From Candidatus Latescibacterota bacterium (lineage in GTDB: Bacteria > Latescibacterota > UBA2968): a stretch of 64,000 nucleotides of DNA. Below, one piece after another: positions 26,558 to 63,990 of this stretch. The notes under the pieces are model-generated. The model was not told the DNA's origin. It saw nothing but the letters and a program-made list of their open reading frames with translations, and did not search any database. A program made the position numbers and the translations under genes. How positions within the stretch are numbered: position 1 is the first letter of the stretch; each line of letters starts with the position of its first letter. The DNA is taken from positions 640,646 through 704,645 of the forward strand of contig OZ244847.1 of NCBI GenBank assembly GCA_965220765.1, read 5' to 3'.

Positions 26558-28608
26558 TATTTTACTTCGAAAACAGTTTTTCCAACCCCCACGTTGCCCA
26601 GTGCATCTTCCGCTTTCACTACGAGTGTATAAGAGCCGGTTTTCAGATTTTGAATAGAAAAATTCAGTGTCTCTGTCGGCGAATCAAATATCTGGTCAGT
26701 GGGGAAGACGACCTTCCAATCGTCGGAGTTGAGTGAGTACGCTGCCTTATGAATTGCAGTGGCAGCGTCCTGGATTGAACCGGTTACGCTTATCTTTTTG
26801 TCGATCTGCCTTATGTCGTGCAACTGCACCGTTGGTGCCGAATTATCAATTTCAAAGGGCGGACTGACCGCCTCGGCTGTTAATTCGATGGGGTTGTCCA
26901 ATCGGTCTGATGCAACGACCTTAACTTCGACTGTGCCATCGGGAACAGCTTCGGTGTGCCAAAAATAATGTGAGGTCTTCAAATCGTCTTTTAACAGCCG
27001 CCAGTGCGATTCGCCAATACTTCTAAAATACAGGGTATAAATCAAGGCATCGTCGTTGGCATCACCGGCAGTCCAATCAATTTTCCACACGCCTTTTTCC
27101 ATAAATTCTGAATTTTCACCTTCGTTGCCAGACAGGTCGGTCTCGGCTTTAACCCTTAATATTCTGGGATGAACATTTTCCTGCAAGCCCGCGAGTTTGA
27201 TAAAACGCACCAGAGGTGTCGCATTTTCTGATTGTGTCTTCAAAACCAACCGATATTGCAAAAAGCGCCCAGGGCGACTGGTAATGGGTTTTCCCGATGT
27301 GGTGATTGGCTCTGACCACGCACTCCACGTATCATCGGGTTCTTCGCTGTTGCCGGACCGCGTTTGAACAGCGACTGATGTTTTTGCTGGTGTTTCGCTT
27401 TGCCATGATACGCGCCCCCAATGCGATACCCGATCAAAGTCGTAGGGTTCAGAAGTGAGTTGCCCTTCTCTGGCAAATTCTTTTTCTATTCGATAAATTT
27501 CACCGGATCCACTGCATCCAATCCACAGTGCATTTTTGTGCGCGGCAGCCATAACATAGGGATTTACATCTTTTAATACTGTGAGCAAAGTGGCGTTGCC
27601 ATCGGGCCAAATGCGATGTATGCGGCCGTGTTCTCCCGTGACTACTGTTACTGTTCCATTGGCATTAATTACAGAATCTAACAACATCGGATCATTCGTA
27701 TTCCACAGTCGCATTGCCAATCCCGAAGGTTGGATCGCATACAGTGTTGCGCCGGATTGATCTGATCCTTTTTGCTCTCTCCCATTTCCTTCTGTTCGAC
27801 CGCTTTGCGCCATCGCTGTTGCGTAAATTGTGCCATTGGGCATTACACTCAGCGAGTGAATCTCTTTTTCACGGGCGTCGTAAAGCACATCTGCCCCCCC
27901 CTTATCGCGCACCTGATAAATCAGACCGCTGTTGTCTGTGCCCGCATAAATTTCGCCCTGAGCACCCAACGCGAGCGATACGACATTGGGGTCCTTGCTC
28001 GCGTACAGCGCGACGACTTTGCCCTGTTTGTCAATTTTCAAAATGCGCCCGCGGTCACCACCTGTACCCGCATATAATCCACCGCTCGGACGTGCGACTA
28101 TTGCAAATACATGGCTGTCACCTGTCTGACAAAATTCCGTGGGTTCTCGTCCTGGTGCGATGCGATAAATCAGCCCGTCGGGCGATGTGCCCGCATAGAG
28201 CGCGCCATCTATACCAATGGCGAGGCTAAATATGTGAACTTCAGGGGAATCAAATAACAATTCTGCCCGATCGCTGTCGGGCTTGAGCATGTAGATTCGA
28301 CCTTCTTTGCCGGTTCCGATGTACAGGGTTTTGTTTTTATCTACAGATAGTGCCCATACAAAGTCTTCACCTGTGTCTGCTACCCGTTTATAGGATGGTG
28401 CCAATGTCACTGTGCCTTCCCGCGTGAGCGACACGCCATCGGATTCTCCTTTTAGGAAAGCCGTCTGTGAATCTTCTCGCCAAATTTTGGGCGACACTGC
28501 GTTTGCGATTGTTCCAAGGAGGACAAAAAGCAGCACATGTGTCATCCCCGATCTCAATATTCTATCTTTTTTCTTCACCCGAACCTCTCCTGCCTGAAAA
28601 AGTTGCAC
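26557..28608 (-). CDS. secreted beta-propeller repeat protein (two-component-regulator-propeller-like repeats) with C-terminal Ig-like domain
   Basis: 683 aa. Signal peptide. Repeated G.(L/I)Y.GT...G.IY blades. C-terminal beta-sandwich-like region. Confidence 0.45.
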   Translation of the reverse strand: MQLFQAGEVRVKKKDRILRSGMTHVLLFVLLGTIANAVSPKIWREDSQTAFLKGESDGVSLTREGTVTLAPSYKRVADTGEDFVWALSVDKNKTLYIGTGKEGRIYMLKPDSDRAELLFDSPEVHIFSLAIGIDGALYAGTSPDGLIYRIAPGREPTEFCQTGDSHVFAIVARPSGGLYAGTGGDRGRILKIDKQGKVVALYASKDPNVVSLALGAQGEIYAGTDNSGLIYQVRDKGGADVLYDAREKEIHSLSVMPNGTIYATAMAQSGRTEGNGREQKGSDQSGATLYAIQPSGLAMRLWNTNDPMLLDSVINANGTVTVVTGEHGRIHRIWPDGNATLLTVLKDVNPYVMAAAHKNALWIGCSGSGEIYRIEKEFAREGQLTSEPYDFDRVSHWGRVSWQSETPAKTSVAVQTRSGNSEEPDDTWSAWSEPITTSGKPITSRPGRFLQYRLVLKTQSENATPLVRFIKLAGLQENVHPRILRVKAETDLSGNEGENSEFMEKGVWKIDWTAGDANDDALIYTLYFRSIGESHWRLLKDDLKTSHYFWHTEAVPDGTVEVKVVASDRLDNPIELTAEAVSPPFEIDNSAPTVQLHDIRQIDKKISVTGSIQDAATAIHKAAYSLNSDDWKVVFPTDQIFDSPTETLNFSIQNLKTGSYTLVVKAEDALGNVGVGKTVFEVK

Positions 28609-33706: not shown

Positions 33707-35392
33707 CTAAAAATAATAAATCAGATAAATTGCGAGAAAAATAATTGCGAGAAGCACATTGCTTTGCGATAACCACGATCGACCAAATAATCCCCTGTTA
33801 TTGTGTTGCGTCCGAATACCGGCAATGAGTTTTCGAATCAGCGCCTTTCCTCCATCGAAAAAGGCATCGACAAGTGGGCCGCCCGTTCGAACAATGGCGC
33901 GAATACCTTTGGGTAAAGCACGTCGATAAATCCAATCGGCATCGAGGTTGACACTGGGCTGTTCGGACGGGTAATTGCCCGTTAGCATAAGGGCCGCAAA
34001 TGCCAGCACGCCGAAGAATACCAGTTGCAGTTGGAGCACGACATGGGTTGTCGTGTAAGATATATAATCTACAGGATATGGCAACAGATTGTAAAGAAGT
34101 GGCGGATAGGATCCGATGGCGACACAGAGTATGGCTGAGATTGTCATGGCGATCCGCATATTGAGCGGTGCTTCAGGGCAGCGAATTTTTGAATCGTGCG
34201 CGAAAAATGTGAAAAATGGAATTTTGACACCTGCGTGGTGAAGCACGCCTGCCGATGCAGCTAACAGCACCAGCCAGATTCCCACAGCGCCCATGTTGGC
34301 GACGCCTTGCATAACCATGGGCTTGCTGATAAATGCATTGAATAGCGGAAGCGCGGAAATAGATGCGGCACCTATCAGACAGCACGCACAGGTCCAGGGC
34401 ATGGATTTGTAAAGGCCGCCCAGATCTGTGGCATTCATTCGCCCGGTGCGATACAAGACAGCACCCATGGACATGAATAGCAGCCCTTTGAAGATCACGT
34501 CATTGAAGGCATGCGATACTGCGCCGTTAATACCCAGGGCACCCCCCACACCAATGCCCACGACCATAAATCCGATCTGGTTGATCATGCTGTAGCTCAA
34601 TACGCGGCGCAGATCATTTTCGATAACTGCAAAGAAAACCGGAAATATGGTCATGATTGCGCCGATGTAGATGAGTAGTTCCTCTCCAGCAAATCCGCGC
34701 GCGAGGGCATATACAGCGGTTTTGGTGGTAAATGCGCTCAGAAATACCGTGCCTACGGGTGTGGATTCTGGATAGGCGTCGATCAGCCAGTTGTGGAGCA
34801 GGGGAAAGGCGCATTTGATTCCAAAGGCCAAAAATATCAGGTAGTGATGTCCCTCATTTAGTCCGATGTGTTCGAATGCAAGGGATTTTGTGTTCAAAAA
34901 GTAGAATACAGCGCCCAGTAGCAGCAGCAAGCCCGACGAGATGTGCACGACCAGATAGCGCATGCCAGAGCGCAGTGCACGCTCACCGCCGCGCGCCCAT
35001 ATCAGGAATACCGATGTGATCGCCAGCAATTCCCAGAAGATGAACAGGGTGATCAGATCGCCGGCAAATACAGCGCCAACCGCCGATCCCGCGTAGATTA
35101 ATCCCGTGCCGATTTGCAGTCGATCCTTGAGATGCAGGGCGTAGATTGCGCCGAGAAAAGCCGCGAGATGGAATAGATATCCAAATAGCATGCTCAAGCG
35201 GTCTGCGCGCAGTACGGTCAGTTCGTATCCGCCCCATGTGATGTGCCACAGGGTTCCATCGGCAATGGTCAGCAGGTTTAAAAATCCGAGCACAGGCAAG
35301 CACACCGACACAATGCGGCGCGGTGTGCCTGGCAGACAAAATAAAAATAGGCCGCCCGCCAGCAGGATCAATGCGGGATGAAGCTCACTCAT
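33707..35392 (-). CDS. Mrp/Mnh antiporter large subunit (MrpD/NuoL-like proton-conducting membrane transporter)
   Basis: 561 aa polytopic protein. Complex-I antiporter-like subunit motifs. Last gene of the mrp-like array. Confidence 0.8.
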   Translation of the reverse strand: MSELHPALILLAGGLFLFCLPGTPRRIVSVCLPVLGFLNLLTIADGTLWHITWGGYELTVLRADRLSMLFGYLFHLAAFLGAIYALHLKDRLQIGTGLIYAGSAVGAVFAGDLITLFIFWELLAITSVFLIWARGGERALRSGMRYLVVHISSGLLLLLGAVFYFLNTKSLAFEHIGLNEGHHYLIFLAFGIKCAFPLLHNWLIDAYPESTPVGTVFLSAFTTKTAVYALARGFAGEELLIYIGAIMTIFPVFFAVIENDLRRVLSYSMINQIGFMVVGIGVGGALGINGAVSHAFNDVIFKGLLFMSMGAVLYRTGRMNATDLGGLYKSMPWTCACCLIGAASISALPLFNAFISKPMVMQGVANMGAVGIWLVLLAASAGVLHHAGVKIPFFTFFAHDSKIRCPEAPLNMRIAMTISAILCVAIGSYPPLLYNLLPYPVDYISYTTTHVVLQLQLVFFGVLAFAALMLTGNYPSEQPSVNLDADWIYRRALPKGIRAIVRTGGPLVDAFFDGGKALIRKLIAGIRTQHNNRGLFGRSWLSQSNVLLAIIFLAIYLIYYF

Positions 35393-35669
35393 CGTAATAG
35401 TCCTCTGATCGCATGATCATTTTTCGCAAAGGTATAGCCCCCAGAACGATCAATGTGCAAGCCACAAATCCGTAAATGGCATAAAATCCAAACCAGCCTT
35501 CAACTGGCAACGCGCCTTCGGCAAACGTCAGGTGCCGATGCACGATCAGGTCGGTGAGGATCAACAACGCACAACAGACAAAAAAGCCCAGAATCAAGCG
35601 GCGCACATTACCGGGATTGTCAAAAATATGTGGGCGTTCATTCTCTTCAGGAGATTCGGGATTGTTCAT
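35385..35669 (-). CDS. small membrane protein within mrp-like cluster
   Basis: 94 aa with two hydrophobic helices. Coupled by 4-8-bp overlaps to both neighbours. Confidence 0.4.
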   Translation of the reverse strand: MNNPESPEENERPHIFDNPGNVRRLILGFFVCCALLILTDLIVHRHLTFAEGALPVEGWFGFYAIYGFVACTLIVLGAIPLRKMIMRSEDYYDE

Positions 35670-37234
35670 GGTCTGGCCTCTCCGATCATAAGCAACAGAT
35701 TTAGAACAGGGTCGGGATAGATATAGAGCAGCAGGCAGCCCGTGGCCGTAAATAATAAGGGGAGCACACAGGCAAGCGGTGCTTCGTGCAGGCCGTCTGC
35801 GTGATGGTCATTTGTTGCGGGTGCAAAGAATGCATAAATGGGAATGGGCAATAAATAGAGGACATTGAGTAGCGAACTGATGAGCAATACGCCTGCAGCC
35901 ACATATTGATGGGCTTCAATTGTAGCCATAATTAGATACCACTTGCTCCACGCGCCCGCAAAAGGCGGAATTCCGATAATGCTCAGAGAGCCAATCAAAA
36001 AGGCGAACATGGTAAATGGCATCTGCCGTCCAATGCCTTTCATGTCGCTGATTTCTGTTTTGTGCAGGGCCACCAGGATGGCTCCGGCACAGAAGAACAG
36101 GGTGATCTTGCCAAAGGCATGGGTTGCGATGTGCATGCTACCGCCCAGCACACCCAAATCATTTGCAAGCGACGCCCCCAGTACGATATAGGCTAACTGG
36201 CTGATTGTGGAATACGCCAGTCGCGCTTTCAAATTGTCTTTTGTCATCGCTACCAGCGACCCCACCAGAATGGTGAAGCCGGCGATGTAGGTCAGCCATT
36301 CGCTAAGACCCGCATCGGAAAGCAATTCTGTGCCAAAGAGGTAGATCACCACTTTCATGACGGTAAATACACCGGCTTTTACCACGGCTACGGCGTGTAG
36401 CAATGCGCTGACGGGCGTGGGCGCGACCATAGCTGCGGGCAACCATCGGTGGAAGGGCATTAACGCGGCTTTCCCGGTTCCAAAAGCATAGAGACCCAGC
36501 AGGACGATTACAATTCCTTCGCTCGCTTTGCCGGTTAAAATACCGCCCGGCGCAAATTCCAGTGTGCCGGTCAATTGCCATGTCCACACCATGCCCAGCA
36601 ATAGAAAACCCACCGATGTGCTCATCAAGATGCCCATGTAAATTCGCCCGGCGCGCATGGCTTCTTCGCTTCGGTGGTGCGTTACAAGCGGATAGGTCGA
36701 TAGGGTCAATAGCTCGTAAAATATGAAGAGGGTGAACATGTTGCGGGCAAAAGCAACGCCCAGCGCAGCCGAGATGGCAAATGCGAAGAAGACAAAAAAC
36801 CGCGTCTGGTTTTCTTCGTGATGCCCGCGCATGTACCCGATGGCATAGACTGTGGTGACAATCCACAAGCCCGACGCGATCAGGGCAAATATCATGCCCA
36901 ATGGCTCTACTTTAAATGCCAGTGATAGGCCCGGCATTACGTCTATGACATGCGCGACGGGTTGTGCGCCATCCATTACCGAAGGCAGGAGTGAAAGCAC
37001 TGTGCCAAAGGTCAATACCGCCGCAATCAATGTGATTGTTTCACGCATATTGGGACTGCGCGAGGTCAGTGCAATAAAGGGCATGCCCAGAAGTGGTAAC
37101 GCGATGGATAGGAGTATGGCGGTTGATCCACTCACGGCATTACCCCTATCAATAATCCGGCGGCGCGTTGTGCCACGTTGACTGTCAAGTCCGTTTGAAT
37201 ACCAAAATACACTGTTGCTCCCGTCAAAACCCAC
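35666..37234 (-). CDS. mrpD: Mrp/Mnh antiporter subunit D-like (NuoN/M-like)
   Basis: 522 aa polytopic protein. The true start is probably internal, because the ORF overlaps the upstream gene by about 100 bp. Confidence 0.8.
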   Translation of the reverse strand: MGFDGSNSVFWYSNGLDSQRGTTRRRIIDRGNAVSGSTAILLSIALPLLGMPFIALTSRSPNMRETITLIAAVLTFGTVLSLLPSVMDGAQPVAHVIDVMPGLSLAFKVEPLGMIFALIASGLWIVTTVYAIGYMRGHHEENQTRFFVFFAFAISAALGVAFARNMFTLFIFYELLTLSTYPLVTHHRSEEAMRAGRIYMGILMSTSVGFLLLGMVWTWQLTGTLEFAPGGILTGKASEGIVIVLLGLYAFGTGKAALMPFHRWLPAAMVAPTPVSALLHAVAVVKAGVFTVMKVVIYLFGTELLSDAGLSEWLTYIAGFTILVGSLVAMTKDNLKARLAYSTISQLAYIVLGASLANDLGVLGGSMHIATHAFGKITLFFCAGAILVALHKTEISDMKGIGRQMPFTMFAFLIGSLSIIGIPPFAGAWSKWYLIMATIEAHQYVAAGVLLISSLLNVLYLLPIPIYAFFAPATNDHHADGLHEAPLACVLPLLFTATGCLLLYIYPDPVLNLLLMIGEARP

Positions 37235-38610
37235 ATAGAGATCTGCATCATTAACGGTGCTTCCTTTACATTGGAATCGTCATCGGCTTTCTGAAAATAG
37301 GCGACTTCAACGACGCGCCACATATAAACTACGGCGAGTAGAGAACTGAGCAAGGCGAGTAGTGCTATGGGCCACCACCCGGCTTCCAGCGCGGCCAAAA
37401 TTAAATACCATTTGCTGATAAAGCCCACGGTTAATGGCACGCCGATTAAGCTCAAACCCGCCAGTACAAAAGCCGCCATAGTCACGGGCATGCGTCGTCC
37501 AAGGCCTTTCCAGTCGGCAAGGTCAGATGATCCGAGGCGCAATACCACGCAGCCCACAGCCAAAAATAGTGCGGCTTTCATCAGTGCGTGGTTAAACAGG
37601 TGCACAATCCCTCCCGTCAATCCAGCGAGTGAAACAAAGCCGATGCCCAGCATCATGTATCCGATTTGCGCCACGCTCGAATAGGCCAATAATCGCTTTA
37701 TATTGGTCTGGTAAATAGCGGATAGGGATGCCACGTAAATCCCGATGAGGGATAGGGGAATTAAAAAGACATCGAGGTTGAGTTTTTCAAATACAAACTC
37801 GGCACCCCATACGGTGAATGTGAATCTCAAAAATACGTAGATGGATACTTTTGTCGCTGTTGCAGCTAAAAATGCCGTGACCACAGAGGGGGCGTAACAA
37901 TAGGCATTGGGCAACCACATGTGCAGCGGGAACATTGCCAGTTTGATTAACATGCCCACGGTTAAGAAGGCGAATGCGACCATTGCTGTGCGGGTTTCGA
38001 ACATGGCGGGCAAGCGTTGGGATAGATCAAACATATTTAGCGTGCCGGTCATCATATACATCAGTCCGATACCGATGACAATAAATGTGGCTCCCAATGT
38101 GCCCATGAGCAAATATTGATAAGATGCCGTCAATGCGCGCCGGTCGCGTCCCATCGCGATGAGGGTATAGGACGATAGCGATGATATTTCCAAAAATACA
38201 AAGACGTTAAACGCATCGCCTGTGATTGTAATGCCCATCAATCCGGTGAGGCAGAGCAAATAAGCTGTATAAAACAAATAATGCTGCTTACCGGAGATTT
38301 CATCAGCCACGCTCGGCAGTGCAAAAAACGTCAGCACGGCGGCGATGATCGAAACCAGTAGCAGCACAAAAGCATTGATTGTATCGACGCGGTATTCAAT
38401 GCCCCAGGGCGCAATCCATCCGCCTATTGCATAAGAGACCACGCCTTCTTCAAGTACGCGGATGAGTAGCATAGACGCCATGCATAGGGCGGCCAAACAC
38501 ACGAGAGATGCAAAAGCCCATACCAGCGTCTTTTGCCGCAACAACACACATAAGGGGGCTGCCACAAGGGGTACAACGATCAACAATATGGGCAGGTGCA
38601 TATCAATCAT
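37132..38610 (-). CDS. mrpD: Mrp/Mnh antiporter subunit D-like (NuoM-like)
   Basis: 492 aa polytopic protein. Conserved antiporter-subunit helices with charged mid-membrane residues. Confidence 0.8.
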   Translation of the reverse strand: MIDMHLPILLIVVPLVAAPLCVLLRQKTLVWAFASLVCLAALCMASMLLIRVLEEGVVSYAIGGWIAPWGIEYRVDTINAFVLLLVSIIAAVLTFFALPSVADEISGKQHYLFYTAYLLCLTGLMGITITGDAFNVFVFLEISSLSSYTLIAMGRDRRALTASYQYLLMGTLGATFIVIGIGLMYMMTGTLNMFDLSQRLPAMFETRTAMVAFAFLTVGMLIKLAMFPLHMWLPNAYCYAPSVVTAFLAATATKVSIYVFLRFTFTVWGAEFVFEKLNLDVFLIPLSLIGIYVASLSAIYQTNIKRLLAYSSVAQIGYMMLGIGFVSLAGLTGGIVHLFNHALMKAALFLAVGCVVLRLGSSDLADWKGLGRRMPVTMAAFVLAGLSLIGVPLTVGFISKWYLILAALEAGWWPIALLALLSSLLAVVYMWRVVEVAYFQKADDDSNVKEAPLMMQISMWVLTGATVYFGIQTDLTVNVAQRAAGLLIGVMP

Positions 38611-52374: not shown

Positions 52375-54144
52375 TTATGCGATAAGTTGCTTGCGAAAAA
52401 GATGCCAATAGTGTCCTTTCCTCTTCACCAACTCGCCATGGAGTCCTTGCTCAACCACTCTGCCCCCATCCAAACAAATAACCTCATCTACCTGCTGGAT
52501 GGTGCTGAGTCTGTGGCTAATCACAATCAGGGTCTTATCTTCATATAGATCCTGTAAATTTGCTATAATTTTACCTTCGCTTTCAGAATCCAGTGCCGAT
52601 GTTGCTTCGTCAAGGATCAGAATATCCGAGTTTTTCAAAATTGCACGCGCAATCGCAATACGTTGTCTTTGACCAGCCGAAAGCGTGTTACCACGATCAC
52701 CGATAAGCGTAAGCACCCCATCTTCAGACTTCTCAATAAATCCATCCAAACCAGTTAGCCTGATCGCTTGATTGACCTCTTCGGGTGTACTTTTGGGCTT
52801 GCTGTACCGGATATTGTTCCAGATCGTATCATGAAAAACTTGATTTTCCTGGGTTACCAGACCAATATGCTCTCTCAGATCATACAGCTTGATATTGGTA
52901 ATCGGTGTGTGATCAATCGCAATCTCACCTGTATCGGATTCGTAAAAGCGACACAGCAAATTGACTAATGAACTCTTGCCACAACCGCTTGACCCCACCA
53001 GAGCATATTTTTTCCCTTTCTCAAGTCTTAAACTGAAGTCCTGCAAAACGGGTTGTCCGTTATATCCGAAATTGAGGTTGGTAAACGCAATCTCCTTTTG
53101 AAAAGAAAACGGACTGGTGGCAGACCCATCTGCTGTTTTCTGAATATCAATCTCGAGAAACTCGAATACCCGCTTCATTGAAACAGATACACGGACGAGT
53201 TCTACATAAAGCTGATTGAGATTTCTAAATGGTTCAAAAAGACGCGACAGGTACTGCAAAAAAGCAACCAATGCCCCCAGGCTCATGGCCCCCAACATGA
53301 CTTTATGGCCTCCCCATCCCAAAATGAGTGCCGGAGTCAATGACGTTAACAATCTCGAAATCGATCTCATCGCTCCAGAGTAGGTTACATTTTGCATACT
53401 GATATCCATGAGACCATTTAGCTGTGACCGCAGTCTATTATTTTCATAATTATAGGCATTATAGACTTGAATCAATTGGATAGACTCGAATCGCTCAATC
53501 AAATAGCTCATGACTTCAGAGCCTTTCTTTCGCCCGCGTTCCGTAATATCTCTTATTTTGGGCTGGAAGTAGCGAATATTGAGTGCCAGAAAGGGTATGA
53601 CAATAATAGAAACCAAAAATAGCTGCCAGTTTAACCAGCACAGAGCCACAGTAAGCCCTATGAGTGTCAGCAAGCTATGTATAAGACTCAAAGCACTTGA
53701 AGTAATAAACGACTGTATCCGATCCACTTCGTTGCTCATTCGATAGACCACATCTCCAGATTTATTGCGATCATAAAAGCTCAATGGCAACTGGATCAAG
53801 TGATCAAAAAGATGGCTTCTTATATCCAGCATAATGCGATTGTTTATATAGGCAAATAAATAGTTTGAACAAAAACTAATGATGATATTCCCTACCGTAA
53901 CACCCAATAGCAGAAGTAAAATCCATATCAATAGTTCATAGTCTTCGTTTGGAAACACGTCATCAATGATAATTTTCATGATATAAGGGAAGGCCAGCGA
54001 GCTAATAGTCCCTAAAATCATGAGCACGAAAACAACGCTTTGATGTATCCAATAAGGTTTCAGAAATTTTAAAAAATGATAAAAGACATGTCTCTGCTTA
54101 GAGAGACTGAAAATGGCGGATATGACTTGTTGTTTGTCCTTCAT
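52375..54144 (-). CDS. ABC exporter, fused permease/ATP-binding protein (ABCB-type half transporter)
   Basis: 590 aa from MKDKQQ. 6-transmembrane-helix domain, then Walker A GSSGCGKSS, signature LSAGQRQR and Walker B ILILDEATSALD. The longer ORF to 54354 reads through the repeat element and is rejected as the start. Confidence 0.9.
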   Translation of the reverse strand: MKDKQQVISAIFSLSKQRHVFYHFLKFLKPYWIHQSVVFVLMILGTISSLAFPYIMKIIIDDVFPNEDYELLIWILLLLLGVTVGNIIISFCSNYLFAYINNRIMLDIRSHLFDHLIQLPLSFYDRNKSGDVVYRMSNEVDRIQSFITSSALSLIHSLLTLIGLTVALCWLNWQLFLVSIIVIPFLALNIRYFQPKIRDITERGRKKGSEVMSYLIERFESIQLIQVYNAYNYENNRLRSQLNGLMDISMQNVTYSGAMRSISRLLTSLTPALILGWGGHKVMLGAMSLGALVAFLQYLSRLFEPFRNLNQLYVELVRVSVSMKRVFEFLEIDIQKTADGSATSPFSFQKEIAFTNLNFGYNGQPVLQDFSLRLEKGKKYALVGSSGCGKSSLVNLLCRFYESDTGEIAIDHTPITNIKLYDLREHIGLVTQENQVFHDTIWNNIRYSKPKSTPEEVNQAIRLTGLDGFIEKSEDGVLTLIGDRGNTLSAGQRQRIAIARAILKNSDILILDEATSALDSESEGKIIANLQDLYEDKTLIVISHRLSTIQQVDEVICLDGGRVVEQGLHGELVKRKGHYWHLFRKQLIA

Positions 54145-54192: not shown

Positions 54193-54368
54193 CACCTTAC
54201 TCGATAAGCTCAAGTAAACTATTCTCTCAAGCTCACATTCCCAAATGCTTGAACTTTGAACTGCTGCCTGCCCGCGCCGTCGCCTGTCCGCATGCAGGTG
54301 TTCCGCACAGGCAGGCACGGCAGGCAGGTCTGCCGCCGACATTCGACTTGCCAAGGTCTGTCGGCAAC
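54193..54368 (+). repeat. repeat module copy 2 (with a roughly 60-bp GC-rich insertion)
   Basis: ccttactcgataagctcaagtaaa...ctcaagctcacattcccaaatgcttgaactttgaactgctg-[60-bp insert]-ctgccgccgacattcgacttgccaaggtctgtcggcaac. Confidence 0.8.
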
Positions 54369-54407: not shown

Positions 54408-55514
54408 TCACTGTCCGGTAGAGGCTCCTTGGGGTTCAGTTAGACGATAGACACGAATCCTGCCATTGGTATCTTCGCCATCCTCAGGAGGCGAATACGC
54501 ATATATAGAATTCCCATGGCAAGTAAAAATATTGTACCCCAATTCATTCTTCACTTCCTGTGCATAAGGCTGCACATCCAAATCCGATAAAAGTATAAGT
54601 GCAGTACTCATTGATAAATCCTCAAAAGTGTACCTGAGCAAAATATCTCCCGAAGACAAGATATGCATGCCGTACAACCTGCTGAACCTATGTTGGGATA
54701 ATTGTCTTATATCTTTGCTATCATCTACTTCATCTAACTTGAGACTGACAAATTTGGGATGATTTGTGACTATGGGTGTAAGAAACTCCTGTGCTGTCAA
54801 ATCAATTCGCATAACTTTATCTTCCCAAGGCAGCGCAAAGTATATGATTTTTCGCACTTCGTCATAAGCAAGCCCTTGGTAACGCTGCAAACCAAAAAAT
54901 AGTTTTCCGTATTGTGTATCGCAGACCTTGAACTTTGCGAGGTCGTCACCAGTGTCAAGGGAAGTGACGCAAAGCATACCGTTTTTGTTTTTATCTACAT
55001 AAGTATGAATGAGATTATGACCATCGGAAACCGCCAAGCGATTAATAAAGCGTCTCTCAGATAGCTCTACTTTCCCTACAAATTCACCTTTGAGTGAAAA
55101 TCGAAGCGTCTGTCCGGTTCCTCCATCGTAGATTAGTATTTGGTCGGTATTGGGGATAGTCGTTGGGTGAGTCGGTATCTTGTACTGGCCTTCTCCTTCC
55201 CCCCGACTGCCAATAGACCGCTTATAGCTTCCCTCTCTGCCAAAAACTTCGACACTTTTTCTCATAGTATCTAAAATAATGATGTAGTCCTCCACAACCA
55301 CAATAGATCCGACACGCCCGAGAAACGGTCCCGCCTCTGGGTGTTCGAGGGTAATAACATCAATCAATGCGATCTGGGGGGGGGGGCCTTGTGTTTGCAC
55401 CTTAGGGACGACCCTATCGAGCTGGTTTTCAACAGTACTTTTTTCGCAACTTCCAAAAATAAGAAAGAGGAGTGTCAGCCACCTCGCGGAAACCAATAAC
55501 TTTTTTTTATTCAT
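54408..55514 (-). CDS. beta-propeller lipoprotein (6-bladed-propeller-like) carrying a 12-nt homopolymeric tract
   Basis: 368 aa. Lipobox LIFGSC. Repeated blade-like segments. A G12 run on the plus strand at 55376-55387 encodes the PPP of ..QGPPPQIA... Confidence 0.5.
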   Translation of the reverse strand: MNKKKLLVSARWLTLLFLIFGSCEKSTVENQLDRVVPKVQTQGPPPQIALIDVITLEHPEAGPFLGRVGSIVVVEDYIIILDTMRKSVEVFGREGSYKRSIGSRGEGEGQYKIPTHPTTIPNTDQILIYDGGTGQTLRFSLKGEFVGKVELSERRFINRLAVSDGHNLIHTYVDKNKNGMLCVTSLDTGDDLAKFKVCDTQYGKLFFGLQRYQGLAYDEVRKIIYFALPWEDKVMRIDLTAQEFLTPIVTNHPKFVSLKLDEVDDSKDIRQLSQHRFSRLYGMHILSSGDILLRYTFEDLSMSTALILLSDLDVQPYAQEVKNELGYNIFTCHGNSIYAYSPPEDGEDTNGRIRVYRLTEPQGASTGQ

Positions 55515-55540: not shown

Positions 55541-56498
55541 TCGATATTCCTGAGAAGTTGTTTTAAAAATGGATCGTTTAATCGAGTCTGTTGAGTAAGA
55601 GGTAAATCATAACAATGTGAATAAAGGCTTCACTATTGTCAGTCAAGTCTTCATAATCCTTTGACAGACGGCGAAAATTTAATAACCAAGCAAAGGTGCG
55701 CTCAACGACCCAACGGCGCTTGGCGACCTGGAAGCCCTCACCTTTAGGCTTAACAACCTCAAGATCAATTTTATACGTGCGCTTCCTATCAGCGACCCAT
55801 TCCTTGAGGTCATCGCCGCGATAGCCGCCATCAACCCACAGCTTGCGTAAGCGTGTTGTTCCTTGCTCAAAATACTGATTCAGCAGATGCTTGAGGCCGT
55901 CACGATCTTGGAGATTGGCAGGCGAGACAAAGGCGTTGATCACCAGGCCGAGGGTATCGACAAACAGGTGGCGTTTGCGTCCATTGACCTTTTTGCCAGC
56001 ATCGTAACCTTTTGAGTCTTTTTGTGTTGCACTCTTGACACTTTGACTGTCAATGCAGCCTGCTGATGCGGTAGCTTTGCGTCCTTGTCGTTTTCTCTCT
56101 TTTCGTGTGAGTGCTTGTTGCATACGCTCAAAGACACTTTGCTCGCGCCACTTATTGAAATAGCCATACACGGTTTGCCAGCAGCCAAAGGTATGAGGCA
56201 ACATGCGCCATTGGCAGCCCGTCTTCGTCAGATACAGGATGCCATCAAACACGTTCCGCAAATTGACAGGGGGACGTCCACGGCTACCTTTTCGCCATTT
56301 GCGCTTGGGCAGGAGTGGGATGAGCAGTTGCCATTGCGCTTCGGTTACATTTGTCGGATATTGCCGGTGCGTATTCATCGCAGGTCCTTTCGTTTCAGGG
56401 TGATATGCACTACCTGAATTTGGACAGATGAATACGCTTTTTCAACGCTTTTTTTCTTCTTTCATAATTTTAAAACAGCTTCTGAGGATTTACCGAGA
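55541..56498. mobile_element. IS5-family insertion sequence (about 0.96 kb) with about 25-30-bp imperfect terminal inverted repeats
   Basis: Left end tcgatattcctgagaagttgttttaaaaatgg. Right end reverse-complement tcggtaaatcctcagaagctgttttaaaattatg. Single transposase ORF inside. Confidence 0.75.
55578..56378 (-). CDS. IS5-family DDE transposase
   Basis: 266 aa. DDE_Tnp_1-like motifs CIDSQSV (D), FVDTLGL (D), VVERTFAWL (E). N-terminal helix-turn-helix. Confidence 0.85.
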   Translation of the reverse strand: MNTHRQYPTNVTEAQWQLLIPLLPKRKWRKGSRGRPPVNLRNVFDGILYLTKTGCQWRMLPHTFGCWQTVYGYFNKWREQSVFERMQQALTRKERKRQGRKATASAGCIDSQSVKSATQKDSKGYDAGKKVNGRKRHLFVDTLGLVINAFVSPANLQDRDGLKHLLNQYFEQGTTRLRKLWVDGGYRGDDLKEWVADRKRTYKIDLEVVKPKGEGFQVAKRRWVVERTFAWLLNFRRLSKDYEDLTDNSEAFIHIVMIYLLLNRLD

Positions 56499-56574: not shown

Positions 56575-59052
56575 TCAGTCCTCTTGAAGGGCATCTATTG
56601 GACTTTCAGAGGCGACCTTGAACGCATGTATGAAGCCACCTATCAGCGGAAGAAGAATGCCTAAGAAGATTGCTACCAAAATCGTGCCAACACCAAATTG
56701 AAAGCGGTAGGCAAATATTGAGAGCCATTCATCCATAAAGAAATAGGAGAGCGGAAGCATGATGATGGCGGCGATAAATCCAGGTACTGCGTAGTTCAGC
56801 ACAATCCCACTGGCTATTTTGGAGGGCACAGCCCCCATGACCCTTCGGATGACGATTTCCTTTCTTCTGCGTGCCACGGCGAGGGAGATCATGCCCAGGG
56901 CACCCATTGACGCGATCAGGACAGCACACAAAGTCGCGCCAGAGACGATCTTGCTCCAACTGATTTCTCGGGCATAAAAGTGTCGCCTGTCATCTTCTAC
57001 AAAGGAAAATGTCAGGTGATGCTCCGTTTTGAGGTCTTGCCATAGTTCCTTGAGAAACGCACTAAATGCTTTGGCATTGCCATCTTGAAGCCGAATCAAT
57101 ATTTCACGGTCTTGTCGCTTGGTTGTTGCACCATCTGGGACAATCGTGATGATAGTCGGTGGGACCTTGTGGTGTGAACTTTGGAAGCGAAAATCCTTGA
57201 CTATACCTACAATACGGCCACTGACATCGCGACCAAACACGGGTCTTCTGAACTTTGTATCCGCCTGCGTGATCACCTGTCCAAGAGGCTGTGGTGATGT
57301 CAGGTGTTTTTGCAAGGCTTCATTCACGATTACATCGCCCGGGATAGGATTTGGATGTAAGGCTCTTCCTTGTAAGAGTTGCAACCCGACGGTCTTCAGA
57401 AAAGGGCCATCTACCTGATAATAGTTTACATTATCAATGAGTTTGTTACCGCTGTCTTTGATTAGAGTTGAGTTTGACGAATTTAGAGACAGATTCGTCC
57501 GAACAGAGGATGTCACGAGAGGAGACGCTGATAAAGACGCTTGCAGACGATCAATCTCATTTTCTGTCAACCCACTGGTATTGAGTCTGACCAGGTTCGC
57601 GGGTTCAAACCCTGGATCTGCTGTGATGACGAAAAAGGTCTGTTCAAAGATAATGATCGTGCAAAATACAAACACCAATGTCACACCCGACTGTACAGCC
57701 ATCAGTACCTTCAAAAAAGGACCAGACCTGACGGCCTTTGAGGTTTTGCTCAAAACGCTGATGGCAGACACAGACGACATAAATGTCGCCGGGTAAATGG
57801 CTGTGACCAGACCTATTAGACAGGCAAGTGATAGGAAAATGATCGCGGTCTGAATAGGATCTACCGAAGACATAAAAGGGATCCGCAAAATGCCTTCAAT
57901 AGGACTTGAGGCCAACTCTGCGACTGCCAGACTTATGATGCAGGCCAAAATGCTGTATCCAAAGCATTCGGCCAATAGCTGGTATCTGAGTTGCCGTCGG
58001 TTCGCGCCAAAGATTTGCCTGATGCCCAATTCTTTTGTACGCGAGTTGAACCGCGCTACATAAAGAAGCACGTAATTCAAACACGCGATAAACAGAACCA
58101 ATATACTGATACCGGCGAGAATATATCCATATAAGGGATTTGTTTTGCGAAACATACCATCAACAAATAGACCGATATAATGGTGCAGGTCTGTGAGGGA
58201 TTGCAATTTGGCCTGAAAGGTCTCTAAGTCCCATATTGAGTTGATAGAGGACTGCTTCTGCATGAACGTAGTGAGCTTTCTGTCCATTTCTTCCACATTT
58301 GATCTGTCTGCCAAACGGATGTAATGTGTGGATTCAAAGCCCCAGTCCCATTGTCCTTCTTCATTATCGAGAAAGGTCGTGGACATACTCAAGGGCAAAA
58401 GAATCTCGAAATATAAGCTCGAATTACGTGGAGGAGCCACGATGCCCCCGATTTCAACAGGGGCTACTACGGGTTTTATATCTCTCAAAAATCTGCGAGA
58501 AGCAACTCGCATCCATAACACTTTGCCTATCAAGTTGTCAATATCGTTGGTAAGCGTCTGAGCAAATCTACGTGTGATCACGACTTGCCCAGGGCGAGAG
58601 AAGAATGTACCGCGAATAAGGGGGAAGGAAAACATCTCTTCAAAACTTCTATCGACGAACAAGACATGTTGGATAGGTCGCAAAAACTCTTTGTGAGTAC
58701 CTACCTGGCAGGTCGCTGTCCCAATGACACTCTTTACACGGGTTGTATGCTCAATCTCAGGAAATTCAGCAGCCACCATGGAGGATAGTGCAACAGGAAA
58801 ACTGGCGGTCTCTGTCCATGTGCCCGCCAACGGTGTCCCTCTTATTGTTTTTTCATACTTGACCTTTCCGACAACGCAGTATATGCGATGATGGTCTTTG
58901 TGGAATCTATCAAAGCTCCAATCGTACAGGAAGTAAAGCACGCAGAGATAGCAGCAGGCAATTCCTATCCCCAAACCCAGCAGATTAATGGCTGCATACG
59001 TTTTATACTTGAGGATATTGCGAAACCATGTTCGGAAGTAATTGGCAATCAT
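56575..59052 (-). CDS. FtsX-domain ABC-transporter permease (MacB-like, two FtsX repeats)
   Basis: 825 aa. An N-terminal transmembrane helix, a large periplasmic domain and 3 transmembrane helices, repeated twice. No adjacent cognate ATPase gene. Confidence 0.8.
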   Translation of the reverse strand: MIANYFRTWFRNILKYKTYAAINLLGLGIGIACCYLCVLYFLYDWSFDRFHKDHHRIYCVVGKVKYEKTIRGTPLAGTWTETASFPVALSSMVAAEFPEIEHTTRVKSVIGTATCQVGTHKEFLRPIQHVLFVDRSFEEMFSFPLIRGTFFSRPGQVVITRRFAQTLTNDIDNLIGKVLWMRVASRRFLRDIKPVVAPVEIGGIVAPPRNSSLYFEILLPLSMSTTFLDNEEGQWDWGFESTHYIRLADRSNVEEMDRKLTTFMQKQSSINSIWDLETFQAKLQSLTDLHHYIGLFVDGMFRKTNPLYGYILAGISILVLFIACLNYVLLYVARFNSRTKELGIRQIFGANRRQLRYQLLAECFGYSILACIISLAVAELASSPIEGILRIPFMSSVDPIQTAIIFLSLACLIGLVTAIYPATFMSSVSAISVLSKTSKAVRSGPFLKVLMAVQSGVTLVFVFCTIIIFEQTFFVITADPGFEPANLVRLNTSGLTENEIDRLQASLSASPLVTSSVRTNLSLNSSNSTLIKDSGNKLIDNVNYYQVDGPFLKTVGLQLLQGRALHPNPIPGDVIVNEALQKHLTSPQPLGQVITQADTKFRRPVFGRDVSGRIVGIVKDFRFQSSHHKVPPTIITIVPDGATTKRQDREILIRLQDGNAKAFSAFLKELWQDLKTEHHLTFSFVEDDRRHFYAREISWSKIVSGATLCAVLIASMGALGMISLAVARRRKEIVIRRVMGAVPSKIASGIVLNYAVPGFIAAIIMLPLSYFFMDEWLSIFAYRFQFGVGTILVAIFLGILLPLIGGFIHAFKVASESPIDALQED

Positions 59053-59666: not shown

Positions 59667-59900
59667 TCAGCATGGTCCCCAAGTTTTTCTCGTACTATAT
59701 GCCTCCTCTGATCTACATTCGTAATAAGGAAAATACTCCCGGCACTCATAGTAAGTGGTTATGGTCACACACCTAACCGGATCTCCAACAGTCTCTCTTA
59801 TACGACCCGTCTCAATCCAGATACCCCAGTCGTGCCACTCATATCCATAAATACGTGGAGAAGACAGCGGAGACTTCTCAGGCTTGGTCAAGATCTTCAT
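59667..59900 (-). CDS. small Cys/aromatic-rich peptide (candidate precursor peptide)
   Basis: 77 aa. Strong RBS AAAGGAAAGGAGGTG 7 nt before the ATG. Four Cys. Internal YYEC..YYEC repeat. Repeat module copy 3 lies immediately upstream. Confidence 0.45.
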   Translation of the reverse strand: MKILTKPEKSPLSSPRIYGYEWHDWGIWIETGRIRETVGDPVRCVTITTYYECREYFPYYECRSEEAYSTRKTWGPC

Positions 59901-60128: not shown

Positions 60129-60851
60129 TCAATAAACAAATGTAGATAAAGGATCTATCTCAAATTTCTTGGCAATAATTCGAGAATAGGGCACCCCTTT
60201 AAGATGACCGTTTAGAAGTGGTTTTTGTAAACGCAAATGTTTTTGAATCACACCAAAAAAGAGGACTGTGTTTTGAGGGCGGTCTTTTGAAGGCAAATGA
60301 CAATGCGTTATGATATTCTTTTCATTGACAACAAAGACCGCTGGCGTGCGATGGGTGAGTACTTTATTCTGGAATAGCATGTTCTCAGTATCCGAAAGCA
60401 ACTCGTAATGCAGATTAAAACTTCTTTTGTATCTTTTCAACACGCCCGCAGGAGCATTGGCAAACGCATAAATTGGAAAGCGTTTTTCGGGGTCCTGGCT
60501 CTGGTACACATGCTCCAGTAACTTTATCTGGGTGATTAGACAGGGCTGACAGTCTTGAGGCTTGAAGACGAGAACCAATCCTTTTCCTGTTTTAGAAAAA
60601 TCCGTTGAAATCCAATCGCCATTTATATTCTTCAATTTCAACTTCGGAAATTCTTGCCCTTGATAATTGGAGGCATAAGTAGAAGTGTTTATATGCTCCT
60701 TGTAATCAGCATTCTCTATTCGGAGACCTCTGATTTCTTCCCAACGACGAGCGTTCGTATTTCTCAACTTCCATACCCCAAATAACGCAACAAAAAGAAA
60801 AACAGATAGCAGGATATTTAAAATCAGCGATATTTTGCGAATTTCTTGCAT
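60129..60851 (-). CDS. membrane-anchored TlpA/ResA-like thiol-disulfide oxidoreductase (thioredoxin fold, CxxC)
   Basis: 240 aa. N-terminal transmembrane helix. VLVFKPQDCQPCLITQ active-site CQPC. Confidence 0.7.
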   Translation of the reverse strand: MQEIRKISLILNILLSVFLFVALFGVWKLRNTNARRWEEIRGLRIENADYKEHINTSTYASNYQGQEFPKLKLKNINGDWISTDFSKTGKGLVLVFKPQDCQPCLITQIKLLEHVYQSQDPEKRFPIYAFANAPAGVLKRYKRSFNLHYELLSDTENMLFQNKVLTHRTPAVFVVNEKNIITHCHLPSKDRPQNTVLFFGVIQKHLRLQKPLLNGHLKGVPYSRIIAKKFEIDPLSTFVY

Positions 60852-60882: not shown

Positions 60883-62799
60883 TCAAAAAAAATCAACAAC
60901 AACATCGGCCATCTTTTTTTGTCCTTCTACGCTGATTATCTCAGTGGCTGGAAGGCCCTGCGTTGATTCTATGCGCGATGTGATTTGGCAAATTTCCGCT
61001 TTAGAGAGCGGCTGGTTGACGACTGTATTAACCGTGTCATTAACAATTTTTTTCTTATCACTAAAAACGAGCAGAATAACTTTTCCTTTTCCCAGGCCCT
61101 CTAACACGCGGATATTTTCCTGTATAAATTCAGGCTCGTCGATAGAATTAACGAGCAGGATATAGGCATCGGGAACGGTTCCAAAGAGCAAGATCAATGA
61201 GGGCAACGTATAACTCTGAGATTTTTCGTAAAAGCTATGAGGTATGATACCGGACTGACCACCAACAATGATGATATCCGGGTCTGAGTGTTCAATGCCG
61301 ACCATAGCGGAATTTAGAAGTGGAATGTGTAAATCTATGGGAATTTGGATGCTCTGATGCCCGTCATATCCATTTGGAAATGTAAAATCGAAATCAAATA
61401 ATGCAGATTGGTGTTCTGTACCCAATTGACCCACTTTATAGCCAATTTTCTGTAATTGTTTTCTCAGTGCCAATTGTGCAGTGAACTTGCCTTGTTGCGG
61501 TCCTGTCCCAAACACGCCCACGACAGGTTTCTGGCTTCTGTTTCTCCAATCATAAGTTTTGGTCAAAGCCTCATAAGTTGCAAAATCAATGGTCGGTGCT
61601 GCACAATGTAGATATTTTTCTTCAAATGCTTTACTTATGCTTTCGTATTGCTTATTTGCAATGGGGCTCAGACTGTAAACATTCTTGTTATGCTTCAATG
61701 CCAGTTTTAGAGATTCTTGTAACACATCGCGTTTCTTAATCCGGCTAATTTCATCCAAATAGCCCAAAACGAGCGTATCGCCGTATTGCAGACAGTCTTC
61801 CAAATTTTGTTGTATGATGAGATCAGATTCGACCCCACCAATAACCTCCCCACAATCTTTGCCTATGGTTCTTTTTCCAACAACGTCAACTACCCTTGCA
61901 ATTCTAAACGGCAATAACTCCTGAAACCGCACCAGCCCATGCATTTCTTTGTTATAGGGGAAAATCACAGCCTTTTCTATCCAGTCTGGCGTATTATTTG
62001 CCTTATTTAGGTCTCGGATAGAAACGTCTGAGCGAGACCTGGGCATTTCGCTCATTGCATAAGCACTGCTATCTACCAACTCGGGACATTGACTTAAGGA
62101 GTGCATCTGCAAAATTTCTGTCAGATCGTTGAAAGTTATGCCATCATATTTCTCTATGATCAGAGCAATCAAGCCAGAAACATGCGGAGCCGCAAAACTC
62201 GATCCGCCCATAAATATCTGTTTGCCTACCAGCCAATCGAGGCGTTGACGATCACCTCGTGCGACAAACTGTATTTTTTCGTGCGGGTCAAAAAAGTAAT
62301 CAAATTTTCCACTCACTTTTCCTCCTGCTACGCCAAAAACATTGGGAAAAGACGCGGGAATACTCGGTTGTCCATCATTTGATGTCGCCGCAACAATGAA
62401 CGTCTGGTGTTTGTGTGCAAAATCACAGGCCTCCTTCAAAATATCGATATTCCTCTCATCCAGAGTGCCTAAACTCAAATTGATAATGTGACAGTGATGT
62501 TCAACACACCAGTAAATCGCCTTGCACAAAATGTCCATTGTCGCTATCAGCTCTGATTCAAAAATTTTGACAGGCAAAAATTCTACATTGGGAGCCTTAG
62601 AGTGGATGACGCCAATACATGCTGTACCGTGGCCTATCATATCCTTGTAATTTGAATCCTGACCGCCATTGCAGAAACTGGTACCATTCAACACATGTAC
62701 ATCTTTGTGGCCGACGTTAAAACCGCTATCAATGACGCCGATCCGAGTCCCAGTACCTGTCAGCCCTGAAAAAAAATGCGCCATCAAAAAACCTTTCAA
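60883..62799 (-). CDS. intracellular S8 subtilisin-like serine peptidase fused to a roughly 400-aa C-terminal domain (possible CoA-binding/Rossmann-like region)
   Basis: 638 aa. Catalytic triad contexts GVIDSGF (D), HGTACIG (H), GGSSFAAPHVSG (S). No signal peptide. C-terminal half contains VVGVFGTGPQQGKFTAQLAL, which is SucD/CoA-binding-like. Confidence 0.8.
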   Translation of the reverse strand: MKGFLMAHFFSGLTGTGTRIGVIDSGFNVGHKDVHVLNGTSFCNGGQDSNYKDMIGHGTACIGVIHSKAPNVEFLPVKIFESELIATMDILCKAIYWCVEHHCHIINLSLGTLDERNIDILKEACDFAHKHQTFIVAATSNDGQPSIPASFPNVFGVAGGKVSGKFDYFFDPHEKIQFVARGDRQRLDWLVGKQIFMGGSSFAAPHVSGLIALIIEKYDGITFNDLTEILQMHSLSQCPELVDSSAYAMSEMPRSRSDVSIRDLNKANNTPDWIEKAVIFPYNKEMHGLVRFQELLPFRIARVVDVVGKRTIGKDCGEVIGGVESDLIIQQNLEDCLQYGDTLVLGYLDEISRIKKRDVLQESLKLALKHNKNVYSLSPIANKQYESISKAFEEKYLHCAAPTIDFATYEALTKTYDWRNRSQKPVVGVFGTGPQQGKFTAQLALRKQLQKIGYKVGQLGTEHQSALFDFDFTFPNGYDGHQSIQIPIDLHIPLLNSAMVGIEHSDPDIIIVGGQSGIIPHSFYEKSQSYTLPSLILLFGTVPDAYILLVNSIDEPEFIQENIRVLEGLGKGKVILLVFSDKKKIVNDTVNTVVNQPLSKAEICQITSRIESTQGLPATEIISVEGQKKMADVVVDFF

Positions 62800-63450: not shown

Positions 63451-63990
63451 TTATAGTTTCAAGCCCGAAAGTTTGTCCTGACCTGCAAAATTTGTCCCAG
63501 ATTCTACTTTTTTGCGATATGTGGTCGGACTAACGCCATGCTTCTCTTTGAAAAACTTGCTAAAAGTCGATAAAGATGCAAATCCACACAGGTAAGCAAT
63601 TTCTGAAAGGGTATATGATGTGTTCTTCAACGCTTCCTCAGCCTTTGTTAGACGTACATTCCGAAGGCACATCCTGAACGGCATTCCCAGGTGCTTCTTA
63701 AACAATTTATATCCATAGCTTTCCGAGAACCTGAAATGACGTATGACATCTTTAAATTTCAGCTTTGGATTGCTGTAATTCGCCTCCAAAAATGATTCCA
63801 ACCAGATCTTCCACATATCTTGTGGAGGCATATATTTTTTGATCTTCGCCAAAAACACATCTCTCTTGATGGGTTTATCAAATACACTGACAGCACCGGC
63901 CTTGATCAGTTGCTCGCCCAATTCTGCGGATTGCAAATCTGTCATGACCAGCATAGCGGTCTGTATTTTCTCCGCCTTCACACGCTTCAA
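63451..63990 (-). CDS. AraC-family transcriptional regulator, probably with N-terminal receiver domain (5' end outside the window)
   Basis: C-terminal AraC helix-turn-helix (..SEIAYLCGFASLSTFSKFFKEKHGVSPTTYRK). Preceding ..IKAGAVSVFDKPIKRDVFLAKI resembles the end of a REC domain. The ORF runs to the window edge. Confidence 0.8.
   Translation of the reverse strand: MKRVKAEKIQTAMLVMTDLQSAELGEQLIKAGAVSVFDKPIKRDVFLAKIKKYMPPQDMWKIWLESFLEANYSNPKLKFKDVIRHFRFSESYGYKLFKKHLGMPFRMCLRNVRLTKAEEALKNTSYTLSEIAYLCGFASLSTFSKFFKEKHGVSPTTYRKKVESGTNFAGQDKLSGLKL

Follow-up and report, generated by a model that had tools for sequence, protein, structure and literature searches.

Phase variation has been studied mostly in pathogens. 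In Campylobacter jejuni, the capA gene is ON when its tract is G11 and OFF when it is G10 or G12, and switching occurs at 1.6e-3 per division; the G11 tract of cj1139 switches at 4.1e-3, and the change from G8 to G11 in this gene raises mutability about tenfold with a bias to deletions (PMC3401435). In one C. jejuni genome, 29 loci carry tracts of 7 or more G/C (PMC4965091). In Neisseria gonorrhoeae, phase-variable alleles of pgtA carry 11 G in frame, which is the ON state, and other alleles are constitutive, with the interrupted string GGGAGCGGGG in the corresponding position; the two kinds of allele differ by a few substitutions, and the poly-G allele has been demonstrated by experiment to be phase-variable (PMC2193922). 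Homopolymers at the 5' end of a gene have also been described as efficient inactivation sites by Orsi et al. 2010, with the 5' poly(A) tract of Listeria monocytogenes inlA as the example (PMC2831843).

Here we describe a C11 homopolymer (G11 on the plus strand) inside a minus-strand lipoprotein gene, found in a 64-kb stretch of DNA (hereafter the window). It is similar to the case of capA, whose mechanism is slipped-strand mispairing, in that an intragenic 11-nt G/C run stands at its ON length in the gene of an envelope protein. However, the tracts of C. jejuni are numerous and their switching has been measured, whereas the window has a single tract that is absent from relatives and known from sequence alone. 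The resemblance to pgtA lies in the pairing of an uninterrupted 11-nt tract with an interrupted string at the same place, few substitutions apart; in pgtA both allele types occur in one species, whereas in the present case the interrupted versions are found in other species or paralogues (75-88% amino acid identity) and are seen only at the sequence level. As in inlA, the homopolymer is at the 5' end of an envelope protein gene and the frameshift products would be very short, but the over-representation reported by Orsi et al. 2010 concerns poly(A)/poly(T) runs no longer than 7 bases (PMC2831843), and the run in the window is a much longer G/C run made from Pro codons. On balance, we lean towards regarding C11 as a genuine, recent and probably incidental homopolymer, which forms a latent contingency or pseudogenisation site and not a maintained switch.

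The preliminary description had reported a 12-nt homopolymeric tract at 55376-55387. The run is real and does start at 55376, but it is 11 nt long (55376..55386), since the plus strand reads ...gcgatctGGGGGGGGGGGccttgtg... and base 55387 is C. In the gene, it occupies nt 129-139, and the sense strand reads GGC CCC CCC CCC CAG, so that the run comprises the last base of Gly43 (GGC), all of Pro44-46 (CCC CCC CCC) and the first base of Gln47 (CAG). A Pro-Pro-Pro string is therefore encoded, as had been noted, although it does not stand just after the lipobox and is located 21 residues beyond the lipobox Cys23. We also considered whether the tract belongs to a promoter or a terminator, and rejected this idea, because scans for promoter and terminator consensus sequences on both strands gave nothing above shuffle expectation and no site at the tract.

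The G11 at 55376 is the sole G/C run longer than 8 nt in the window, in which the numbers of G/C runs of 5, 6, 7, 8 and 11 nt were 58, 4, 1, 1 and 1, respectively. The expected number of G11/C11 runs was 0.02 per window on average, with such a run present in 2 of 100 dinucleotide-preserving shuffles, and for one single window G11 is unusual. When the composition-only expectation was scaled to the 5.71-Mb genome, about 1.8 G11/C11 runs were expected, and thus the existence of the tract is not a strong sign of selection. Nor was any enrichment found among G/C runs of at least 7 nt in the window, for which 3 were observed against about 4.5 expected (independent-base model, our own arithmetic). 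The runners-up are C8 at 27894..27901 and G7 at 5592..5598, and both are in frame: the former is a sense-strand G8 at codon 236 (Lys-Gly-Gly-Ala) in the gene for a 683-aa protein that combines Reg_prop, Vgb_lyase-like and Big_3 domains, and the latter is a sense-strand C7 (His-Pro-Pro-His) inside an 803-aa ORF that has no Pfam match.

Codon usage in the window is also relevant to the origin of such runs. Pro is most often encoded by CCC (299 of 738 codons, 40%), GGC is the commonest Gly codon, and CCC-CCC pairs are not avoided; therefore, a Gly-Pro-Pro-Pro-Gln string turns fairly readily into a long C run. On a related Latescibacterota chromosome (OZ242195.1; our locus L009, 5048..5056), a G9 run was found in a Gly-rich loop (SGSGGGSQG) of an FtsX/MacB-type permease paralogue. 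Given this permease gene, long G/C runs arise incidentally in the lineage, and do so in genes that are not for surface antigens.

The gene that carries the tract (54408..55514, minus strand) is intact and encodes a 368-aa DUF5128/NHL-like six-bladed beta-propeller lipoprotein. The coordinates and strand given for it earlier were correct, as was the placement of the tract in its 5' part, and the propeller is supported by Pfam family PF17170, homologues, an AlphaFold2 model and Foldseek matches. The start codon is ATG, with AAGGA just before it. The protein matched PF17170 (DUF5128, six-bladed beta-propeller) with 47.7 bits (E = 1.6e-12), above the gathering cutoff of 22.9, and all propeller homologues in the protein search also carry PF17170. 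More than 100 full-length homologues (about 355-374 aa) align collinearly with the ORF, and the family profile matched NHL-repeat domains in the PDB at E-values of about 1e-24 (TRIM2, E = 8e-24). The AlphaFold2 model, built from a 49-sequence alignment, has an all-beta body, a mean pLDDT of 82.6 and a pTM of 0.80, and its best Foldseek matches (E of 1e-13 to 1e-12) were the NHL domain of Brat (1q7f) and the Bacteroides exported protein BF0058 (4raa). The window protein shares its fold and PF17170 with these DUF5128/NHL propellers (BF0058, Brat and TRIM NHL), none of which has a known function in bacteria. Unlike them, its family consists of lipoproteins encoded within an operon of an S8 protease/TIGR04066 protein, a redoxin, a permease and an ABC exporter in Latescibacterota/Poribacteria-like MAGs.

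The signal peptide and lipobox are encoded by codons 1-23 (MNKKKLLVSARWLTLLFLIFGSC; 55446..55514, minus strand), and Cys23 is invariant across the aligned homologues. Next to it, codons 24-46 (55377..55445, minus strand) form a tether that leads from the lipid anchor to the first beta-strand and is marked by low model confidence, indels and DNA divergence. The modelled pLDDT of residues 1-42 is under 50, and the first beta-strand spans residues 47-55, so that Pro-Pro-Pro forms the end of the flexible link from lipid anchor to propeller. The protein alignment of the homologues showed several indels in the tether, including VENQK-type repeats. In sliding-window comparisons of the DNA, the most divergent segment of the gene was again the tether (nt 61-150), with 61-86% identity to all relatives. 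Of the other segments compared, nt 150-1080 showed about 96% identity to L003, whereas nt 1-90 showed 93-98% identity to L001 and L002 and 78-80% to L003. Judged by these identity profiles, the gene is a mosaic, and the pattern is suggestive of recombination or gene conversion between members of the family, with the breakpoint close to the tether. Since divergence peaks in the tether and indels accompany it, the part of the gene that holds the tract is the one under the least constraint and the quickest to change.

We then considered the outcome of slippage. Given that the gene is intact, full length and collinear with its homologues, C11 is an ON length. Tracts of C8 and C14 are predicted to stay in frame and give products of 367 and 369 aa, respectively, in comparison with the 368 aa of C11, whereas C9, C10, C12 and C13 are predicted to give products of 50, 49, 51 and 50 aa. 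Thus, the earlier claim that a change of 1 nt in either direction would frameshift the gene holds, with a 49-aa product for C10 and a 51-aa product for C12. The premature stops of the C9, C10, C12 and C13 forms are two TGA codons in ATTGATTGA, just 3' of the tract. They lie in the sense string TGATTGA (55360..55366, minus strand), whose out-of-frame TGA codons at 55364..55366 and 55360..55362 end both alternative frames no more than 16 nt from the tract. The string falls within conserved codons for Leu-Ile-Asp in the first beta-strand, and most relatives have it as well; to judge from these sequences, the stops are nothing special to the gene of the window. After a frameshift, translation could first restart in frame at codon 50 (TTG) or codon 84 (ATG), and the product of either restart would have no signal peptide.

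To see how the tract site appears elsewhere, we compared the DNA of 13 related loci (L001-L013). None of them has an uninterrupted run at the site; six are interrupted over the same 11 nt, and the remaining seven (L003-L009) lack a 6-nt part of the segment. The interrupted sequences are GACCCCCGCCCCCAAG in L011 and L012 (C5-G-C5, with the 11-nt span CCCCCGCCCCC, which encodes Pro-Arg-Pro), GGCCCCCGTCCCCAAG in L001 (span CCCCCGTCCCC), GATCCCCGTCCCCAAG in L002 (span TCCCCGTCCCC), GGTCCCCGCTCCCAGG in L013 (span TCCCCGCTCCC) and GGTCCTCGCTCCCAGG in L010 (span TCCTCGCTCCC). Moreover, no G/C run of at least 7 nt was found anywhere in the propeller gene of the 13 loci. In the subclade with the longer tether, every sampled member has Pro-Arg-Pro or Pro-Arg-Ser, with a G at position 6 of the 11-nt span, and the window differs from it by a change from Arg (CGC or CGT) to Pro (CCC), which requires one or two substitutions and leaves the length unchanged. 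Because six loci carry the interrupted version over the same 11 nt, the run was created by one or two substitutions. We also considered an origin by expansion of the C5 run of L003, the closest full-length relative, and rejected it as less parsimonious, because the tract segment is closer to the type of L001, L010 and L011, which has the interrupted 11-nt span. The preliminary description had proposed a phase-variation switch and named orthologues lacking a repeat tract as evidence against it, and such orthologues are what the 13 loci represent. However, this is not decisive against switching, because the 11-G alleles of pgtA coexist with constitutive GGGAGCGGGG alleles (PMC2193922).

The propeller family is large, with several paralogues per genome and several matches on the same multi-megabase contigs, and L003 contains two permease-propeller modules in tandem. 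The genomes that carry the related loci are labelled as Candidatus Latescibacterota, uncultured Latescibacteria or Candidatus Poribacteria MAGs, and one close relative comes from a TARA metagenome. As a separate observation, proteins at least 90% identical to the Mrp/NADH-antiporter subunit of the window (37132..38610, within 33707..38610) are named Gemmatimonadota in NCBI, and the relatives of the propeller are labelled Latescibacterota or Poribacteria, so the taxonomic labels of the lineage are inconsistent across databases. The protein search returned no sequence more than 88% identical to the propeller query, and the genome-collection scan gave relatives at 64-73% identity only. Exact-protein look-ups with the propeller, permease and redoxin for contigs of the same species gave no record, and scans of JGI metagenomes, both with the protein and with a flank pattern allowing a variable gap, gave no match. 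In a collection of 15 billion proteins, the 368-aa ON form was present, on one contig of 5,710,441 bp (5.71 Mb) only, and the exact ORFs predicted from the C10 and C12 variants (319, 285 and 349 aa) were absent.

Based on these results, we propose that the run arose from an ancestral Pro-Arg-Pro string, which the nearest relatives carry as CCCCC-G-CCCCC or CCCCC-GT-CCCC. A change of the Arg codon to CCC would have fused two short C runs into C11, and because the fusion left the length unaltered, the gene would have stayed in frame. Judging from the known slippage of polymerases, an 11-nt G/C run would undergo single-base gains and losses far more frequently than ordinary sequence does. This slippage would reversibly produce null alleles of 49-51 aa, at a rate that would depend on the mismatch repair status of the host, and the ABC exporter genes downstream may suffer polar effects. 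We saw no sign that selection favoured or preserved C11 as an ON/OFF switch. An incidental tract, which we consider more probable, would mark a site where the gene will often look frameshifted in other assemblies or strains, and annotators should not over-read pseudogene calls there. However, several points speak against an incidental origin. The 11 nt are far beyond the decay of run lengths in the window (58, 4, 1 and 1 at 5-8 nt), and purifying selection would be expected to purge so mutable a site from a needed gene. In addition, a tract at the 5' end of a lipoprotein gene with both alternative frames closed within 16 nt is exactly the layout of a designed switch, and, by analogy with pgtA, a strain-specific tract would be compatible with phase variation.

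The main alternative is therefore a contingency locus, in which slipped-strand mispairing at C11 would reversibly toggle the propeller lipoprotein between ON (C11, C8 or C14) and OFF (C10 or C12). This would give subpopulations that differ in an envelope component of the machinery for peptide maturation and export, for instance to escape phages or host factors or to save cost. We regard it as possible but rather unlikely. Tracts of such length were called slippage sites at the outset, and rightly so, as equally long G/C runs are experimentally hypermutable in other bacteria, for example in C. jejuni capA (PMC3401435); the run is within the range found to be phase-variable by experiment in capA and cj1139 (PMC3401435) and in pgtA (PMC2193922). 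Its position at codons 43-47 of 368, where a change of one base leads to products of 49-51 aa, the lipoprotein signal with an invariant Cys23, and the multi-copy, recombining (mosaic) family with several paralogues per genome would all suit a switch, as would the coexistence of tract-bearing and interrupted alleles in pgtA (PMC2193922). Against this, none of the 13 related loci has the tract, and the interrupted state is only one or two substitutions away. The tract is also a single instance in a window without enrichment of long G/C runs, and the protein collection contained no ORFs of OFF-length variants and no product more than 90% identical. Furthermore, the neighbouring genes suggest that the product serves MacB-type and ABC exporters as a periplasmic partner and is not a surface antigen, and the phrase "phase variation" was absent from the literature retrieved on sponges, Poribacteria and Latescibacteria. 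A fuller version of the same idea is that an uncultivated, marine, probably invertebrate-associated Latescibacterota/Poribacteria-like bacterium uses a poly-C slippage switch, just born from an interrupted Pro-Arg-Pro string, to toggle the lipoprotein of an operon for the maturation and export of a RiPP-like peptide. For the candidate lineage, no earlier contingency locus would then have been described, and this one would operate in a symbiont instead of a pathogen. We consider this version unlikely. If the length of the tract does vary in nature, then homopolymer-driven phase variation would reach an uncultured lineage rich in symbionts as well as an operon for peptide export, and the nearest relatives would document the birth of a switch, in which one or two substitutions fuse two short runs.

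Two further explanations concern the letters of the tract and the residues that it encodes. Homopolymers are the main residual error class of long-read assembly data, and the window apparently comes from a single 5.71-Mb MAG contig, which implies a long-read assembly. The true sequence could accordingly be interrupted (e.g., CCCCCGCCCCC) or of another length, with a consensus or polishing error in a low-complexity context, and the G that relatives have at position 6 of the same 11-nt span fits this idea. However, the length of the tract keeps the frame exactly and equals that of the orthologous interrupted span, whereas a random error in length would break the ORF two-thirds of the time; in addition, a change from G (or GT) to C is a substitution and not the indel that is typical of homopolymer errors. 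Because the frame and the 11-nt span are exactly preserved, we judge an artefact of this kind to be very unlikely. The poly-G artefact of two-colour sequencing affects the ends of reads, and we rejected it because the run is embedded in frame in a conserved coding sequence. Alternatively, Pro-Pro-Pro itself may have been selected, either as a rigid polyproline spacer or for an EF-P-dependent pause near the start of the mature lipoprotein, and the homopolymer would then be only a shadow of codon usage. The subclade is already rich in Pro at the site (P-R-P or P-R-S), CCC is the preferred Pro codon, and the motif directly precedes the first beta-strand. Nevertheless, most members of the family lack either a proline cluster or these residues altogether, so that Pro-Pro-Pro is not a conserved requirement, and the only other PPP stretch in the window is written with mixed codons (CCA CCT CCA CCT). 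Selection on these residues thus seems improbable to us, and we retain the recent, incidental run as the preferred explanation.

Next, we examined the genes around the propeller, all of which are on the minus strand. In the order of that strand, they encode an AraC-type regulator (63451..63990), an S8 protease fused to a TIGR04066-type peptide-maturation domain (60883..62799), a redoxin (60129..60851), a 77-aa Cys-rich small ORF (59667..59900; MKILTKPEKS...YGYE...TWGPC) and a duplicated FtsX/MacB-type (ADOP-like) permease (56575..59052), which is the upstream operon partner of the propeller. The downstream partner is an ABC exporter with fused permease and ATPase (52375..54144), whose start was set at the Met that matches 589-aa orthologues, and it is followed by a rhodanese and then a MauE/DoxX protein. 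The synteny of both partners is conserved, and the same gene order, without the insertion sequence described below, recurs in relatives. The operon looks like a peptide maturation and export cassette, judging from its gene content, and this context suggests that the lipoprotein acts alongside the exporters in the envelope and is not a surface antigen in its own right. The toggling of a surface protein, as first imagined for this tract, is not supported by the context, which points to a product that assists peptide maturation and export in the envelope and not to a classic variable surface antigen. The 77-aa ORF is homologous to small ORFs of L003: it matched an 82-aa small ORF beside the orthologous operon of L003 by tblastn (E = 4.6e-10), and an 81-aa ORF of L003 is similar to its first 21 residues only (E = 9e-5). 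The 77-aa product is a candidate precursor peptide of the cassette formed by the S8 protease/TIGR04066 protein, redoxin, permease, propeller, ABC exporter, rhodanese and MauE protein.

An intact IS5-family insertion sequence (55548..56488, minus strand) sits between the FtsX-type permease and the propeller, about 34 bp upstream of the start codon of the latter. Its transposase (55578..56378) matched the NCBIfam model IS5_3 with 252 bits (cutoff, 110) and also matched Pfam DDE_Tnp_1 and DUF4096. The element has imperfect terminal inverted repeats of 19-21 nt (CTCAGAAGCTGTTTTAAAA and CTGAGAAGTTGTTTTAAAA), and its target-site duplication can be read as TCAG or CTCAG. Orthologous loci, such as L001 and L002, have an uninterrupted spacer of about 130 bp where the element sits. 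The insertion may uncouple the propeller from the operon promoter, or may supply an outward promoter. On the other side of the gene, the 263-bp spacer between the stop of the propeller and the start of the ABC exporter contains a long GC-rich hairpin (54255..54330), and the region around it (181 nt) folds at -71.3 kcal/mol, with z = -2.6 relative to shuffles. Because it has no T-tail, the hairpin is not a classical intrinsic terminator, and it may be a REP-like or mRNA-stability element.
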